Shown: positions 13,107-29,766, counted from the stretch's first letter. The stretch: DNA of 64,000 bases from Escherichia coli (GCF_016026235.1 NZ_CP065613.1), one strand, 5' to 3'. The notes: generated by a model from the sequence alone, not told the origin. Numbers and translations: made by a program.

Positions 13107-14400
13107 CTGAGGGATCCCCAGAAAATTTAGTAAACCATTATCATATTGGTATACCGTTGCTGTAGAACTTTCAGCCCTGCGTCAAGTGACAGTGTGTTTA
13201 GTATGAGTGGAGAATGTCGAATCACATTCTCCGCCAGTTTTAATAACGAGATGACTCGCCTGTGCTTCACTGTATTTGCCTGATATTTATGATGTATCCC
13301 TTTGTTTTCCAGGCTGAAACCGCTTAACCACATAATGATACTGGCTAATGTTGCGATCAGACTCAATACCGTGACCCGCCCGGATGAATGACTGGCACCA
13401 AACCGTAGTCCAAATCCCCAGCGAGGATTTTTTTCATCCCTGAAATTTTGCTCAATTTGCATTCTACGGCTGTATAATTTCATTACCTGTTTTGGCGAGA
13501 ACTCAGTACTGTTTGTGAAAATAAACCATGGTGATTTCCCGGCAGTACGAGCTTTAGCCGTCACCGATGGTCTGGTTGCTCTTTCCTTCGAGCGTTTAAA
13601 TCTACGACCTTTAGGCTTACTTTTATAAAGATAAAAATGCCCTTCATGTTGTGCATTTTTATCTCGACCCAGCAGGCCTTCACCTAAATAAATTGCTGTC
13701 GTTGATGCTTTTGTGCCTGAGTCCGACACCTTTTCCCAGCCATTACCAACATTGTAATAATGATTGCCCAGTACCCGGCAAATATAGGTCCAGCCACGGG
13801 AGCGGAGCTGTTGGAACCATCGCCCCTGAAAACCGGCATCTGTAATAACAATGACATCAGTCCCGGGGGAAAAGCACTCAGCAAGCGATTCCAGAAAACG
13901 CTCATGTACATCTGCATTCGCTGTCTGTGATGATGGAACGACACAACTCATCAACGGTAAAGAACGCCCGTCACATGCCAGGCTTGCCCGCAAAAGCTGA
14001 AAACGAGAGGCATGATAAGCACTCCAGTCAATGAGTATCACAACACGAGACATTCCCCGCGTAATCTTTTGGGTAATTCGCTGAAAAATGGTGGAAACCT
14101 CATTTTGCAAATGTCGATTCCCCAACAGTCGATCCACCCGCTTTATTTTGTTTTTAACTGATGCCGTACCGGTTAAATGACGCCCGATACTGGTAAGTGT
14201 GAGGGAAGCGCCATTTATTACAGCATTAGTTGCGTCAATCAGTGATTTTTGACGGTAAAGATGCAAAGGGGCCAGTATGTTGTTAAGGAAATTTTGGCAT
14301 AATGAACGTGCAGGCATAGTGGTGATCTCCTTGAAATTGTTAGCACAATCAATTAGATCACATCTCACTATGCCTGTCTTGTTTTCTGGGGATTCCTCAG
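13107..14400. mobile_element. IS10-like insertion sequence (IS4 family), 1294 bp
   Basis: Ends CTGAGGGATCCCCAGAAAA / TTTTCTGGGGATTCCTCAG (about 22-bp imperfect inverted repeats, IS10-like CTGA termini); flanked by direct repeat GGGTGTTCCC at 13097..13106 and 14401..14410. Confidence 0.8.
13127..14317 (-). CDS. IS10-like transposase (DDE, IS4 family)
   Basis: Blocks resembling IS10 transposase as I recall it: KRVDRLLGNRHL, VILIDWS, ITDAGFQGRWF, YSRRMQIEQNFRDEK, QANTVKHRRV; ORF extends to 14368. Confidence 0.8.
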   Translation of the reverse strand: MPARSLCQNFLNNILAPLHLYRQKSLIDATNAVINGASLTLTSIGRHLTGTASVKNKIKRVDRLLGNRHLQNEVSTIFQRITQKITRGMSRVVILIDWSAYHASRFQLLRASLACDGRSLPLMSCVVPSSQTANADVHERFLESLAECFSPGTDVIVITDAGFQGRWFQQLRSRGWTYICRVLGNHYYNVGNGWEKVSDSGTKASTTAIYLGEGLLGRDKNAQHEGHFYLYKSKPKGRRFKRSKERATRPSVTAKARTAGKSPWFIFTNSTEFSPKQVMKLYSRRMQIEQNFRDEKNPRWGFGLRFGASHSSGRVTVLSLIATLASIIMWLSGFSLENKGIHHKYQANTVKHRRVISLLKLAENVIRHSPLILNTLSLDAGLKVLQQRYTNMIMVY

Positions 14401-15975
14401 GGGTGTTCCCTCCTCCGGTTCGCTGTTCTGGTGCTGTTTATCTTCAGTCTGTCGCACTTCATTTTCCGTTTTTTTGACTTCATTTGAGGAGATATGATGA
14501 CCGGGAATCCATTTCGGATCATTCGGGTCGCTAATCCCTTCAACAAATTCTCCGCGAGAGGCAGCCAGTAATTTGTCTGCATCGACAGGATTTTTGGGCG
14601 GAATGTTTTTCCGGGCTTCATGGAGTTCTGCCCGCAGTTCCTGATATTTCTCATCAACAGCATTTACCTGTGACTGAGCATCCAGCGGCTGCGTGTCCTG
14701 ATGATGTTCAGTTGCATCCGGTTCCACTGTTTCAGCCGTTGCCTGTTCATCTGCCATTGCGCAAGATGGTTGCGGTTTTTCTTCATCATCCTGTTTTCCT
14801 TCTTCTGTTACTCGCTGCGGCATCGGGGCAGAGGAGCGACCGCAGGCAATATCCACGATTTCCGGATCAGGGTTGGCATGATCGGTTTCAGTCAGTACCT
14901 TGTTCAGATATTCAGTGACGTGCGCGGGGATGACCTCGATACCAATCGGTGCTTCTTTCACTGACGCAACCACGATGGCGCGGGAATAATCCATCCCGCC
15001 AGGCATGGTGATGAATTTGTCGCGGAAAACAGAAAAGGGCGGTTTATTTTCAGTGATAATTTCCTCAATGCGTTTAGCGTGTGCCGGATGAAGATTATAA
15101 ATATCCACGTCCATTGAACGGGCCAGTACGCCAGTGGCTACGTCGCGCGCCAGCGACGTCAGATCGTGGACGAAACCTTCGCCGCGATCGGTGAGGTTCC
15201 CGCCGCCAGCATTAGCACCGGAAGCCGTGCGAGTGATACGCGAAACACGATTTCCTTTCATCCACTCTTTTGTCAGCAGACCGCGATCGGTGTAGTTGGC
15301 ATCCAGATATGCTTCGAAAAAAGCAGTCATCAGTCCCAGATTTGAATTGCCAGGATTAGGGAAAACTTTGTCAGTATCACGCACGAGTTTGTGGAGGTCG
15401 CGAATCTCCAGCGGGTCGAGCAGACTGGTTTTATGCGAAACAGCCAGAGCAGTAACAGCCGGTAGTTCTTCATCCCGAGCAATGTGTAATGCCTGGAGTT
15501 CGTCGCGTGAAACGTGCGTTACCGGTTTTTCGCTGCCGTGTTGCGCAAGCCAACGAATGGGCAGTTCCTGACCGGAAACTGGCAGGAGCATGTTCTCCTC
15601 AATTTCTGTCATGTCTTCGCCGTTGACGTTGGTATTGTCAGTGCTGGCTGGTTTGTCCTGAACAGAGGGAGAAGATGCGATAAATACCATTGTGATGCCA
15701 TCTTCCCCGCCTTTTTCGTAACGGTTGCAGAATTCCGTATCAAACACGCCTTCTGGTGGGAGGTCATCAACAACGGGCAAATTGACGCGAACAGGTTTTT
15801 TAAAGTCATCTTCATCGTAGCCAGCATCGTCAATCGCAACAGCACCACGGGAGATGGCAATGGATAATTTTTTCGCTTCAGCCCAGTAAAAACCGCCTTT
15901 AATACCGAGGCGTTTTCTTACTTTGTCATTTTTTGCTTCGTAATACAGTGGGTAAACTTGTTTATCGGTGCTCAT
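14401..15975 (-). CDS. Large acidic early-left phage protein, 3' end truncated by the IS insertion
   Basis: 535-aa ORF whose last 10 codons plus stop (14368..14400) are IS-derived; original product about 650 aa; no P-loop or other motif recognised. Confidence 0.5.
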
Positions 15976-16667: not shown

Positions 16668-17213
16668 TTATTTTAAGGAAAGCAACTGCTCTACGGTCAT
16701 GTTTTTAATTGCGCCCCGGTTTACAAGAGTCCAGCCCTGTTTTTCCAGATAAAACCGGAAAGTCTCCAGGGTACAGACCAGTGCGCCATCAGGAACGGTT
16801 TCGGTGAATTCGACATTGCCGAATTTGTCGAAGTGAACAACCAGAGTGCGACCATCACCCGGAATCATCTTGTCAGCAGGTGGGGTGTTATTCTGGCGCA
16901 GTTCGGCCTCCATGCGGTCGAACTCAGCAATGTAGGCTTCCTTGAATGTGGCGGCTTTTTTGCCCGTGAAGCCCATCACCAGGAAAACGAAGCCGTTTTT
17001 GGTGATTTGGTAGGCGTTATAAGAATTGCCGCGGTGTTCGAATTTAACCCGCGAAAAGTTGCTGGTTAAAAATAGTTCAGAACATTCGAGGGATTCTATT
17101 TTTTGAACAACATGGTGATGCTGCTTGCCAAAAAACTCAGCAATCGAAATAGAAGTAGTGACGGCGCGACCATTTTCGATGGTTACGTCAGGGTGAGAAA
17201 GGGTAGTAGCCAT
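16668..17213 (-). CDS. Rha-family phage regulatory protein / antirepressor-like
   Basis: MATTLSHPDVTIENGRAVTTSISIAEFFGKQHHHVVQKIESL… resembles the Rha N-terminal domain; GAGGA 7 nt upstream of this Met; the ORF extension to 17507 contains a terminator. Confidence 0.55.
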   Translation of the reverse strand: MATTLSHPDVTIENGRAVTTSISIAEFFGKQHHHVVQKIESLECSELFLTSNFSRVKFEHRGNSYNAYQITKNGFVFLVMGFTGKKAATFKEAYIAEFDRMEAELRQNNTPPADKMIPGDGRTLVVHFDKFGNVEFTETVPDGALVCTLETFRFYLEKQGWTLVNRGAIKNMTVEQLLSLK

Positions 17214-17378
17214 AATGACATCCTCAAGTGATAAGTTAATTAACTCACCAGCAGAGGTGCTAATCTCATGGGTGGTGAGACGCACAGGGTTAGCACTACC
17301 GGTCACTCGAGAACCCGGCCAGCCTTGCGGCTGCCCCGCACGCCTCACCATAATTTGAATGTGGCTGTGCATTACGCA

Positions 17379-17402
17379 TAAAAAAACCGCTTCAGCGCGG
17401 TT
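17379..17402 (-). terminator. Rho-independent terminator (minus strand)
   Basis: Minus-strand read AACCGCGCTGAAGCGGTTTTTTT; lies inside the upstream extension of the Rha ORF. Confidence 0.45.
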
Positions 17403-17529
17403 ATGCGCTCGAGTAACTTTCGGGGTGCTAATCCCGGCACCCGTTTTATGAGGTGCAGGTGCACTATAATTCCACCCGTTCTGGTTTTCAATAGCTACAT
17501 TCAACATTTTCTCTTTCCTTTCATCACCG

Positions 17530-17684
17530 AAGTGAATTTTGTGATGCGGTGCCTGGTGCCTCCAGGTGACGTTAACCAGTTAACAATTACAGTCGGCTTT
17601 CCCACCCAAAACAATAAGGACTAACATGACTTTTAACTGTGCCGCGTGCGCTTAGCCGCATTCACCGCATCACAAAATTCACTT
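17530..17684. repeat. 22-bp perfect inverted repeats flanking a 111-bp spacer
   Basis: AAGTGAATTTTGTGATGCGGTG at 17530..17551 and its exact reverse complement at 17663..17684; the spacer holds its own palindrome GTTAACCAGTTAAC. Confidence 0.6.
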
Positions 17685-17920
17685 TAAAAAGGGCGGACAT
17701 CAGCCAGCAATTAAACCGATGCCGCCAACTGGTACTTCACACAGCAATGTCGTTATTTACAACCGGAAGCGCACTCCCACCATTTAAATTTCACAGACAA
17801 GACCGACTCTTTATGAATACCGGAAATGCGCCTTCGTGTTGTGCCCGGTTTTATTTCACCACCTCCGGGCTTTGGTGGTATCTTTACTGAAGTTCTCACA
17901 CAACCAGTAAGGAAATGAAT

Positions 17921-18238
17921 ATGCCAACGTATCTCGCCAGAGTAGAACTATATAATGCTGAGCCAGAGGATTACGAAGGGCTTCATAAATATATGCTCTC
18001 ACTAGGATTCAGGAGAACGATCCCCCATGGAGATGGTTCGTATAATCAACTCCCGGACGGAACTTATGTTTCCGAAAAGGGCGGTGATATTTATCAAATT
18101 CGCAGCCAGATATCTGACTATGCAGACCGACTATCCGGGTATCGCGCGTCTGTTTTGTTTGCGAATTCAGTCAATGCGCATGGTATTTATACCCCGCCAA
18201 GACCCGGTGAATATCCTGCACGGCCTTCTGCTTTGTAG
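17921..18238 (+). CDS. Hypothetical 105-aa protein encoded against the direction of the early-left operon
   Basis: AAGGA SD 7 nt before ATG at 17921; MPTYLARVELYNAEPEDYEGLHKYMLSLGF…; converges on the ydaF-like gene. Confidence 0.5.
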   Translation: MPTYLARVELYNAEPEDYEGLHKYMLSLGFRRTIPHGDGSYNQLPDGTYVSEKGGDIYQIRSQISDYADRLSGYRASVLFANSVNAHGIYTPPRPGEYPARPSAL

Positions 18239-18390
18239 AAGGCTTCTTCGCTATCATAATCGCCAGATTCCAGCGCTTCTTTAGCCAGCCAGATGCGTGC
18301 CCCAGTGCCTGCATTTGGCTCCAGTTGCTGGAGGCGTTTTGCATCTTCTAGGAGTAGAGCGATAACGTGTTTTAATTCTGTCTCGTTCAT
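18187..18390 (-). CDS. Small phage protein, YdaF-like by position
   Basis: 67-aa ORF from the internal ATG with SD GGTGAG; sits where Rac has ydaF; family assignment is by position only. Confidence 0.4.
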   Translation of the reverse strand: MNETELKHVIALLLEDAKRLQQLEPNAGTGARIWLAKEALESGDYDSEEAFYKAEGRAGYSPGLGGV

Positions 18391-18391
18391 T

Positions 18392-18547
18392 TTACTCACC
18401 TGAATGTCTTCCCAACCAACGACGTGCGCCAGCTTCGGTTTTAAACGTTTTGCTTTTGGTATACGTCATGGCGGTGAATGTGCCGTCTTGATTGGGAAAC
18501 ACGCCACATACCAGAGATTCGTTGTTGCCAAGATCGATAGTATTCAT
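18392..18547 (-). CDS. Small phage protein, YdaG/YdfA-like
   Basis: 51 aa MNTIDLGNNESLVCGVFPNQDGTFTAMTYTKSKTFKTEAGARRWLGRHSGE, resembling small early-left proteins of Rac/Qin as I recall them. Confidence 0.45.
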   Translation of the reverse strand: MNTIDLGNNESLVCGVFPNQDGTFTAMTYTKSKTFKTEAGARRWLGRHSGE

Positions 18548-18744
18548 GTTGACCCCATTTCCCCTTAACGCCGGGTGGCGGAACGTTTTATCTACTGCGC
18601 TTTGTATCAATCAACAACTGCCGTCATGTTCGTATGCCTCAGGCTGGCTACTTAGCCCTGTTCAGTGACTGGATAACTCGAGGTATTGTCCTGCCGTTCT
18701 CTGGTGGGGCGTTGTTTGGATATGCTTATTAAACACAATTTGTT

Positions 18745-18852: not shown

Positions 18853-19272
18853 TTATTCCGGTGGGGGATTATCTTTAATCCTGCCTCTCAAATATTTTTC
18901 TACATACTCATCGATTTCTTTTAGCCGGACTTCAAATAGCTCAATCATTCGTTGTTGTTCTGAGCCCGGTAGCTGGTTAAACAACTCAAGAAGTTTTCGT
19001 TGGGATTCATTTAACCACAATTCAGAAGATTCCTGTTCTCCAAAGAGGAGCTCAGGAGGAGATATGCCAAGTGCCTTTCCCAATACGACAGCGTCATGTA
19101 CTCCAACATTTCTGCTGCCCGCCTCATAGTTACCTATACGCGATTGCGTCCATCCGCAGATTTCAGCAAGTTTTCCTTGAGATAAACCAAGCTTCTGCCT
19201 GCGCTCTTTAAGACGCATTGCAATTTTGTCATTGAGCCTACTAGCGGCAATTTTTTCGTTTTCTTTTTCCAT
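18853..19272 (-). CDS. Prophage repressor (HTH, CI/RacR-like)
   Basis: 139 aa; N-terminal XRE-type HTH (LGLSQGKLAEICGWTQSRIGNYEAG); divergent from a Cro-like gene. Confidence 0.7.
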   Translation of the reverse strand: MEKENEKIAASRLNDKIAMRLKERRQKLGLSQGKLAEICGWTQSRIGNYEAGSRNVGVHDAVVLGKALGISPPELLFGEQESSELWLNESQRKLLELFNQLPGSEQQRMIELFEVRLKEIDEYVEKYLRGRIKDNPPPE

Positions 19273-28417: not shown

Positions 28418-28689
28418 CTCAATCTGTTATCCGGGGCTATATTCCTCACGCGCCAGCAAAATCTGGCGTCGGGATTGGCGTCCCGGATGTTTACGGAGCG
28501 ATATGAGACGCGCCCGCGTCTTTTTTCATATCGTTTGCACAGTCTCATTCGCGATTTATGGCGGGCTGTGTGGGGGAGCCGAAAGGCTCGCCGGTTTCCG
28601 TACCCGGTTACGCCAACCCTGCACAGTTCGCCACCAGTTCGATTGGCGTCGTCGGTGGCGATAATTTCCAAATGTACGGAGTTATCGTT

Positions 28690-29455: not shown

Positions 29456-29532
29456 GGCCCTTTAGCTCAGTTGGTCAGAGCGAGCGACTCATAATCGCCA
29501 GGTCGCTGGTTCAAGTCCAGCAAGGGCCACCA
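29456..29532 (+). tRNA. tRNA with anticodon CAU (Ile2/Met-like, ileZ-type)
   Basis: Cloverleaf by eye: acceptor GGCCCTT/AAGGGCC, anticodon loop CTCATAA, T-arm GCTGGTTCAAGTCCAGC, 3' CCA encoded. Confidence 0.8.
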
Positions 29533-29533
29533 A

Positions 29534-29610
29534 CCACCACTAGCTCATCCGGATAGAGCATCAACCTTCTAAGTTGACGGTGCGAGGTTCGAGTCCTCGG
29601 TGGTGGGCCA
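29534..29610 (+). tRNA. tRNA-Arg (anticodon UCU) with atypical 5' C-start acceptor stem
   Basis: Acceptor CCACCAC/GTGGTGG, anticodon loop CTTCTAA, T-arm CGAGGTTCGAGTCCTCG, CCA encoded. Confidence 0.65.
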
Positions 29611-29612
29611 GC

Positions 29613-29688
<76 letters not shown>

Positions 29689-29691
29689 TAT

Positions 29692-29766
<75 letters not shown>

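Follow-up and report, generated by a model that had tools for sequence, protein, structure and literature searches.

An inverted repeat in a Rac-like Escherichia coli prophage is probably the extended stem of an STnc100-type RNA domain and a predicted RNase III site

The 64,000-nt stretch of Escherichia coli DNA analysed here (NZ_CP065613.1; hereafter the window) corresponds to the fnrS-Rac-micC region, as indicated by Rfam matches above gathering score to fnrS (6704), RalA (11131) and MicC (60087). The prophage that it carries is Rac-like, a larger relative of Rac, and the element studied here lies on the minus strand of its early-left operon, the features of which, read in the direction of transcription, are the following:

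18853-19272, minus strand: RacR-like repressor gene (PHROG matches to transcriptional regulators and repressors)
18392-18610 and 18187-18399, minus strand: two small ORFs, downstream of the RacR-like repressor gene
about 17781-17686, minus strand: DicF/KilS-like sRNA with its intrinsic terminator, GGCGG...CCGCCC UUUUU (sub-threshold Rfam DicF match; kilS/dicF alignment)
17686-17690, minus strand: U-tract of that terminator (terminator-like site prediction)
17684-17530, minus strand: the whole element (inverted repeat)
17491-17463, minus strand: predicted sigma-70-like promoter site, ahead of isrK
17380-17456, minus strand: isrK (Rfam, above gathering score)
17402-17385, minus strand: terminator-like site of isrK (terminator prediction)
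17268-17355, minus strand: C4 antisense RNA (Rfam, above gathering score)
16668-17507, minus strand: Rha/antirepressor ORF of 279 aa, "Rha family" (PHROG; same annotation in an O121 genome)

In the O121 genome, which is identical in sequence to the window across 17450-17900, the positions of the two small ORFs are taken by a DUF1391 (YdaF/YdfA-type) gene and the gene next to it. The Rfam DicF model (RF00039) matches the minus strand at 17691-17741 with 28.6 bits, below its 48-bit threshold; since the same model gives 39.1 bits to K-12 kilS and 76.7 bits to K-12 dicF, the sRNA adjacent to the element is a divergent DicF relative, nearer to KilS, which is itself a Northern-verified sRNA (Bar et al. 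2021, PMC8175672). The first arm of the repeat begins one base past the U-tract of the terminator of this sRNA, and the element has the orientation of the RNA genes that flank it, on the minus strand.

Some observations on the surrounding genes were also made. The 279-aa Rha ORF traverses both the isrK and the C4 RNA genes; its Rha domain starts only past an internal ATG at 17213, which is preceded by a GAGGA Shine-Dalgarno sequence, yet the ATG at 17507, further upstream, likewise follows a plausible ribosome-binding site, and the phrog_995 profile covers the long N-terminus. The sequence-only reading of this stretch had placed the repeat between the Rha-like gene and an "orphan" gene; the position stands, but the second label does not, because the gene at 17915-18238 (plus strand) matches phrog_8894 with an E-value of 1e-29 (function unknown in PHROG) and occupies the opposite-strand slot held by sieB in K-12 Rac, and it is thus a member of a recurrent phage family. 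A second isrK/c4-a1b1/C4 module is found at 28437-28638 (plus strand), with four tRNA genes about 800 nt further on (29456-29763, plus strand). A 413-aa IS-type transposase-like ORF (13127-14368, minus strand) stops exactly where a 535-aa ORF (14368-15975) stops; its O121 counterpart is annotated as a truncated RecE-family gene, which may indicate an insertion into recE.

The element is delimited by two inverted arms of 22 nt each (17530-17551 and 17663-17684), which are 100% complementary and separated by 111 nt; read on the plus strand, AAGTGAATTTTGTGATGCGGTG lies at 17530-17551 and its exact reverse complement at 17663-17684. This geometry, 22-bp perfect inverted repeats around a 111-bp spacer, had been described from the sequence and is borne out by the repeat search, with a 22-mer match in 0 of 100 dinucleotide-preserving shuffles. 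The palindrome GTTAACCAGTTAAC, said to be nested in the spacer, is also found (17571-17584), and it consists of the loop of hairpin H3, which forms the 3' strand of a pseudoknot, together with the 3' strand of H3. The repeat is real, non-random and in possession of a biological explanation. That no ORF accounts for it was likewise correct: the interior carries indels between homologues, and the two ORFs of a mechanical list that overlap the element (17403-17624 and 17639-17890, both on the plus strand) are not credible as explanations. Two spacer ORFs, MLVLIVLGGKADCNC (minus strand) and MTFNCAACA (plus strand), were considered and rejected as a coding explanation, being unconserved and lying mostly in the variable insert or across RNA helices.

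Beyond the two arms, no further copy of the 22-mer occurs in the 64-kb window when up to 3 mismatches are allowed. The repeat is thus unique in the window, yet a 451-nt query around the element has matches in 4640 of 5426 complete E. coli genomes, at a median of 2 places per genome, and because of these homologous regions the uniqueness of the repeat, which had been offered as a ground for dismissing it, does not apply. In most of the E. coli records the similarity begins where the arm has its outer edge (query positions 81-84). K-12 has two homologous spacers, one between kilS (b4833) and kilR in Rac and one between dicF and dicB in Qin, both of which align with the element over its whole length; interiors of the Rac type reach about 91% identity in K-12-derived strains over query positions 84-433. 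Two annotations touch these regions. PGAP places a "partial DicB" pseudogene inside the RNA element of E. coli S4 (L126 2588-2671), and in the Qin record (L002) a GTG at 2005 is in frame with the dicB ATG at 2110 (2005-2112), so that a long-form dicB starting there would traverse H3, the hairpin P5 and the 3' arm of the repeat. Long-form dicB ORFs and "partial DicB" calls across the element are probably annotation artefacts.

The family to which the element is related was indicated by Rfam. The STnc100 model (RF02076) matches the minus strand at 17538-17679 with 34.3 bits (E 1.2e-5 in an 801-nt scan, 9e-4 window-wide); this is under the 47-bit gathering threshold, so that a scan at that threshold gives no match, and it covers model positions 21-154 of 206. 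Similar sub-threshold matches are obtained for the Qin and Rac spacers, and no other STnc100 copy was detected in the window by the Rfam scan up to E 0.05. Comparison with STnc100 copies, alignment to homologues and covariation resolve the element into the following parts, in which P1 is the stem formed by the two arms:

17663-17684, minus strand: 5' arm of P1, AAGUGAAUUUUGUGAUGCGGUG (repeat search, alignment to homologues; arm-pair tally over 26 arm combinations)
17548-17551/17663-17666, minus strand: P1 core, GGUG/CACC (STnc100 comparison)
17660-17662, minus strand: junction AAU, preceding P2 (STnc100 comparison)
17644-17659, minus strand: hairpin P2, GCG-GC-(UAAGC)-GC-A-CGC, a 5-bp stem with a bulged A and a pentaloop ending in GC (alignment, covariation)
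17633-17639, minus strand: 5' strand of the pseudoknot, CAGUUAA (permutation test, covariation)
17595-17632, minus strand: variable insert, differing in length and sequence between copies (alignments)
17568-17594, minus strand: hairpin H3, 5' strand GACUGUAAUU, 3' strand GGUUAACGUC (covariation)
17578-17584, minus strand: H3 loop GUUAACU, the 3' strand of the pseudoknot (permutation test)
17552-17566, minus strand: hairpin P5, CCUGG-AGGCA-CCAGG, abutting the 3' strand of P1 directly
17530-17551, minus strand: 3' arm of P1, CACCGCAUCACAAAAUUCACUU (repeat search and arm-pair tally)

To collect relatives, viral contigs were scanned with two motifs, CACCNGGAGGCACCNGGCAC, which is the most conserved one, and GTGAATGCGGCTNNGCGC, which is specific to the variant; each of the two gave at least 120 loci. 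Among the matches listed, the copies share one order of parts, namely P1, AAU, P2, the pseudoknot strand, the variable insert, H3, one A and P5, and across the family a segment of 6-9 nt after P2 pairs with the H3 loop. P5 (CCNGG-AGGCA-CCNGG) is the most conserved part, nearly invariant and 100% paired in 20 diverse copies, and in the window it carries a compensatory G-C to U-A variant; in the same 20 copies the columns of the P1 core, AAU and P5 are either invariant or compensated in this way. The H3 of the window looks recombinant. Its 5' strand, GACUGUAAUU, is of the Rac type and its 3' strand, GGUUAACGUC, of the Qin type, which accounts for two mismatched pairs in the window copy; in the two parental types, compensatory changes keep H3 paired throughout.

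Folding of both strands had been proposed as a check. On the minus strand, P1 and P5 are retained in the minimum-energy and centroid folds with z of about -3.8 to -4.4, and the 22-bp stem persists in both kinds of fold for transcripts of 241 nt and 316 nt. The plus strand folds about as well (z -4.5); an RNA from that strand was considered and is ruled out by the orientation of the Rfam match, by the neighbouring RNA genes and by the asymmetry between G-U and A-C pairs in the arms given below. Among the options named earlier, that of a structured RNA is the one supported, by the sub-threshold STnc100 match on the minus strand and by the covariation of the helices.

Pairs that covary across phage copies lend support to P1, P2, H3 and the pseudoknot. 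With 20 diverse copies, RNAalifold predicted P1, P2 and P5, with compensatory changes in 9 of 19 pairs. When H3 and the pseudoknot are included, 86.1% of the cells of this alignment are paired, against 70.4% in shuffles, and the covariation score is 0.424 against 0.150, a value that 0 of 500 shuffles equalled; in a control with slid partner columns, pairing is at most 46% and the score at most 0.143. Changes on both sides were seen in 6 of 6 pseudoknot pairs and in 6 of 7 H3 pairs, and 60 distinct H3 stems occur among the compared copies. In P2, where 100% of the cells are paired, three pairs switch from C-G to G-C or U-A with respect to canonical STnc100 copies. The pseudoknot, which the nested structure line of RF02076 does not contain, was examined separately in 94 copies comprising 55 distinct pseudoknot helices: the longest stretch in which the segment after P2 is complementary to an H3 loop has a mean of 6.44 nt for the loop of the same copy and of 4.75 nt for the loops of other copies, and 0 of 2000 permutations attained the former mean.

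The length of P1 is what distinguishes the window copy. Among the matches listed, P1 usually has 5-10 bp, and the copies adjacent to DicF have 21-22 bp; stems of 21-22 bp fall into three subfamilies with unrelated arm sequences, AAGTGAATTTTGTGATGCGGTG, AACAGACCTTGCAATGCAGTG and AACAGGCTTTGTGGTGCGGTG, the first of which includes the window, Qin and Rac. For this first subfamily the arms of 63 distinct element sequences were tallied, giving 26 arm combinations with 490 Watson-Crick cells, 46 G-U, 6 A-C and 20 other non-pairs, 15 of the latter being A-G at the terminal position 22. Four arm positions are fully compensated (C-G to U-A, A-U to G-C, U-A to G-C and U-A to C-G), and the fully Watson-Crick arm pair of the window is found in 3 of the 63 sequences. 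Because the G-U and A-C counts would swap if the opposite strand were the functional one, selection acts on the minus-strand RNA; a simple count of G-U pairs in the short P1 extensions does not separate the strands, whereas the long-stem subfamily (46 vs 6) does. A DicF-type terminator lies just upstream on the same strand in 80 of the 87 copies of the arm family, and none of the 87 is inverted with respect to it. Moreover, in most long-stem copies the end of the 3' arm lies roughly 15-35 nt ahead of a start codon, that of dicB, kilR or another small ORF, and the Shine-Dalgarno sequence follows the 3' arm by a few nt.

A function for such a stem is suggested by the Qin homologue. There, a 72-nt DicF is reportedly made by RNase III (Faubladier et al. 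1990, as cited in PMC5069750 and PMC9438474), and an older review lists the dicA-dicF-dicB intergenic regions among RNase III substrates. With dicF annotated at 1883-1935 of L002, 72 nt counted from 1883 end at 1954, nt 13 of the arm at 1942-1963, and by this calculation the 3' end of the 72-nt DicF would fall inside the 5' arm, close to the midpoint of the helix. A duplex of about 22 bp is what RNase III accommodates, with a preference for G-C or C-G between the two cleavage points (PMC6212723), and the centre of the helix (G12-C, U13-A, G14-C) fits this preference. In the window the duplex is uninterrupted over about two helical turns (about 20-22 bp), with 22 of 22 pairs Watson-Crick, and it is homologous to the Qin RNase III site both in sequence and in position, the arm lying just past the terminator U-tract in both. 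In Table S1 of Gordon 2017 the rnc-dependent position 1649470 (dicF-dicB) is marked "known" with 26 reads; it falls in the P2 region, 7 nt inward from the point where the 5' arm stops, and gives weak support for cleavage of the stem.

Taking these data together, we consider it probable that the inverted repeat is the extended P1 of a structured minus-strand RNA domain of about 155 nt within the early-left transcript, and we predict it to be an RNase III site. The domain appears, on a sub-threshold match, to be a long-stem variant of the STnc100/PasD-type phage RNA fold, with P5 stacked beside P1, and the repeat of the window copy is most probably an RNase III processing site, as judged from its homology to Qin. 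According to this model, RNA polymerase would continue past the terminator of the DicF/KilS-like sRNA lying upstream, the arms of the repeat would pair into a perfect 22-bp duplex, of about the length that RNase III accommodates, and the enzyme would cut near the middle of it, as its Qin homologue suggests. Through the cut the sRNA would acquire an alternative 3' end that extends it, and the downstream message would be released with a new 5' end, this message being isrK-C4-Rha/antirepressor in the window and dicB, kilR or another small ORF in other prophages. The effect on downstream expression is uncertain in the window, because the next gene is not dicB or kilR but isrK, which has a promoter-like site of its own. 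The suggestion that the repeat is a regulatory element is thus plausible in one sense only, that of an RNA processing site.

A second pairing was noticed in the same transcript. The segment 17767-17793, at the 5' end of the KilS-like sRNA, is complementary over 27 nt (70%) to 17627-17653, in the P2/pseudoknot part of the element, and the rnc-dependent K-12 positions 1418510 and 1649470 lie near the segments equivalent to these two. A duplex of this kind would enclose the sRNA and may be an alternative long-range pairing behind a second RNase III site; it is unused in the minimum-energy and centroid folds. As a point against the RNase III model, the dicBF study of 2023 places the enzyme only at the 5' end of a DicF species of 190 nt.

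RNase III processing cannot be the function of the conserved core, since P1 of most members, at 5-10 bp, is too short for it. Canonical copies score 52-165 bits against STnc100 and, in phage contigs, form tandem arrays that also contain tRNA genes and isrI. Such arrays, in which 2-5 STnc100 units alternate with tRNA genes and isrI-like RNAs, are found at L046 6091-7998 and L078 4089-5246, and further arrays of the same kind at L043 342-1253 and L026 2361-3362; in L046, intrinsic terminators close the units and a 216-aa ORF precedes the array. At the tRNA cluster of the window (29456-29763) STnc100 units are absent, unlike in the tRNA arrays of related phage contigs. Other copies lie in the P7 ban operon, between tRNA genes and terB, and STnc100 has been reported 75 nt downstream of stx2B and in outer-membrane vesicles (PMC12370729). 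The PasD1 and PasD2 RNAs of EPEC, for which a structural relationship to STnc100 has been reported, depend on Hfq and have been confirmed as sRNAs by Northern blot (PMC8550237; bioRxiv 10.64898/2026.05.13.724894). In the window, the 3' linker and terminator hairpin of the STnc100 model (positions 155-206) are lacking, with no terminator-like site between 17530 and that at 17402-17385; lacking the terminator part of the model, the window copy is better viewed as an operon-embedded variant than as an sRNA gene.

Five other readings were weighed. Membership of the STnc100 sequence and structure family, the Hfq dependence of the related PasD RNAs (PMC8550237) and the intrinsic terminator that ends each canonical phage unit would suit a stand-alone, Hfq-dependent, trans-acting sRNA gene of the canonical STnc100/PasD type that base-pairs with target mRNAs. 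We regard this as unlikely for the window, where the match stops before the 3' linker and terminator hairpin are reached, the isrK terminator is the first terminator-like site past the 3' arm, no promoter-like site precedes the 5' arm, which begins one base past the terminator of another RNA, and a perfect 22-bp stem would bury both RNA ends. A slightly better, though still poor, chance is given to the idea that the core goes beyond an sRNA scaffold and is a functional RNA machine of a type not yet described, such as a domain that binds a protein or ligand, an RNA that processes itself, or a decoy; its four-way junction, the H3-loop pseudoknot, the near-invariant junction and loop nucleotides and its distribution (most E. 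coli genomes, P1-like phages, tandem arrays with phage tRNA genes) are features of this core, to which, if it were such a machine, the DicF-adjacent copies would have added an RNase III stem. It is possible, if doubtful, that the core acts in cis, as a sensor or protein-binding domain in the 5' UTR which controls the translation or stability of a toxic gene such as dicB or kilR, and just as doubtful that the long stem keeps the ribosome-binding region repressed until RNase III or a bound factor opens it. The distance of the 3' arm from start codon and Shine-Dalgarno sequence speaks for it, as do the invariant loops and junctions and the pseudoknot, a complexity usual for ligand- or protein-binding RNAs, and the lambda N leader, in which processing by RNase III relieves translational repression, provides an analogy only. 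Against it, nothing tested points to a ligand or binding protein, canonical copies precede terminators or tRNA genes rather than ORFs, and the next unit in the window is isrK with its own promoter-like site. This sensor reading is compatible with the RNase III stem and does not exclude it.

The two remaining readings have far less in their favour. If P1 on P5 mimicked the minihelix of acceptor stem and T arm, the element could be a tRNA-like punctuation mark cut by RNase P or another tRNA-processing enzyme: P5, with its 5-bp stem, abuts the 3' strand of P1 as the T arm abuts the acceptor stem, the junction is four-way, GC dinucleotides are conserved in the P2 and P5 loops, tRNA genes stand in the same arrays as canonical copies, and RNase P is the enzyme that matures the adjacent C4 RNA. 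However, P1 ranges between 5 and 22 bp instead of having a constant 7, the loop of P5 is 5 nt long and not 7 as in a T-loop, no conserved CCA-like tail is found at the 3' end, and the Rfam scans gave no tRNA or tmRNA match at the element, so that we hold it very improbable. Least credible of all is an element acting as DNA, whether a MITE or its scar, an invertible promoter segment with recombinase sites, or paired operator sites. Perfect 22-bp terminal inverted repeats around a short segment, and an IS-type transposase ORF elsewhere in the window, are what recommend it. Yet there is no target-site duplication (CACCG precedes the repeat and TAAAA follows it), the window holds one copy, and the homologues keep the same neighbours with 0 of 87 inverted; selection at the DNA level is also an unlikely source of the arms, because it would yield neither the excess of G-U over A-C, 46 to 6, nor the compensatory changes in four further helices. 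The proposed scar of a miniature transposable element fails on the lack of a duplication, on the single window copy and on the 80 of 87 copies that follow a DicF-type terminator, and for a replication element, also proposed, there is no support, neither a second copy nor a DNA-level feature having been found. An invertible switch was rejected on the same orientation count and because each of the 40 listed E. coli matches forms one collinear piece.

At the level of the Qin homologue and of the Rfam family the feature is largely known. In the literature searched we did not find the link between the dicBF/kilR processing region and STnc100/PasD, the pseudoknot, or the origin of long stems on three occasions, and a full-text search with the P5 core sequence gave no match. 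The analysis thus explains a striking repeat as an RNA feature and not as a feature of mobile elements or replication, in a copy that sits where the DicF of K-12 Qin reportedly acquires its RNase III-made 3' end; it links two literatures, on the dicBF/kilR processing region and on the STnc100/PasD family of prophage sRNAs, and adds to the family fold a pseudoknot supported by covariation. If the stem does govern the separation or expression of a division-inhibitor sRNA and of toxic or antirepressor genes, it would be a means by which such genes are restrained in cryptic prophages. For annotation it serves as a warning that ORFs called through the element, such as the long dicB and "partial DicB" pseudogenes, are probably artefacts.

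Among known systems the Qin dicF-dicB spacer is the closest: it lies directly 3' of a DicF-type terminator and has the same arms, P2, pseudoknot, H3 and P5. Its stem has 21 pairs including three G-U, whereas that of the window is Watson-Crick throughout; DicF and dicB flank it in Qin, whereas in the window the KilS-like sRNA lies upstream and isrK-C4-Rha/antirepressor downstream; and the reports of RNase III cleavage concern the Qin homologue, not the window copy. The kilS-kilR spacer of Rac shares prophage type, position and a near-identical interior; in K-12 its stem is composed of 10 bp, a bulged A and 11 bp with G-U pairs, its H3 shows compensatory changes relative to Qin, and kilR lies downstream. 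With canonical STnc100 the window copy has in common the GGUGAAU junction, a P2 with a bulged A and a loop ending in GC, H3, and P5 (CCNGG-AGGCA-CCNGG) abutting P1; it differs in its P1 of 22 bp instead of 5-10 bp, in having neither the 3' linker nor the terminator, and in being embedded in an operon after another sRNA, canonical copies being terminator-ended units in tRNA arrays. The put RNAs of HK022 are also cis-acting structured RNAs of lambdoid early operons, but the element comes after, and not before, the adjacent terminator, and identity with these antiterminators is excluded because HK022 is without a copy, with 0 matches to the P5 core pattern at up to 3 mismatches and no Rfam match at E up to 0.01. 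Finally, the RNase III sites between the cistrons of T7 early mRNA, in the lambda N leader and at sib represent the same proposed mode of action, a duplex in a polycistronic phage transcript, and there cutting by RNase III separates RNAs and alters their stability or translation. Those sites are simple hairpins without sequence homology to the element, whereas the duplex of the window closes a conserved, pseudoknotted domain of 111 nt.
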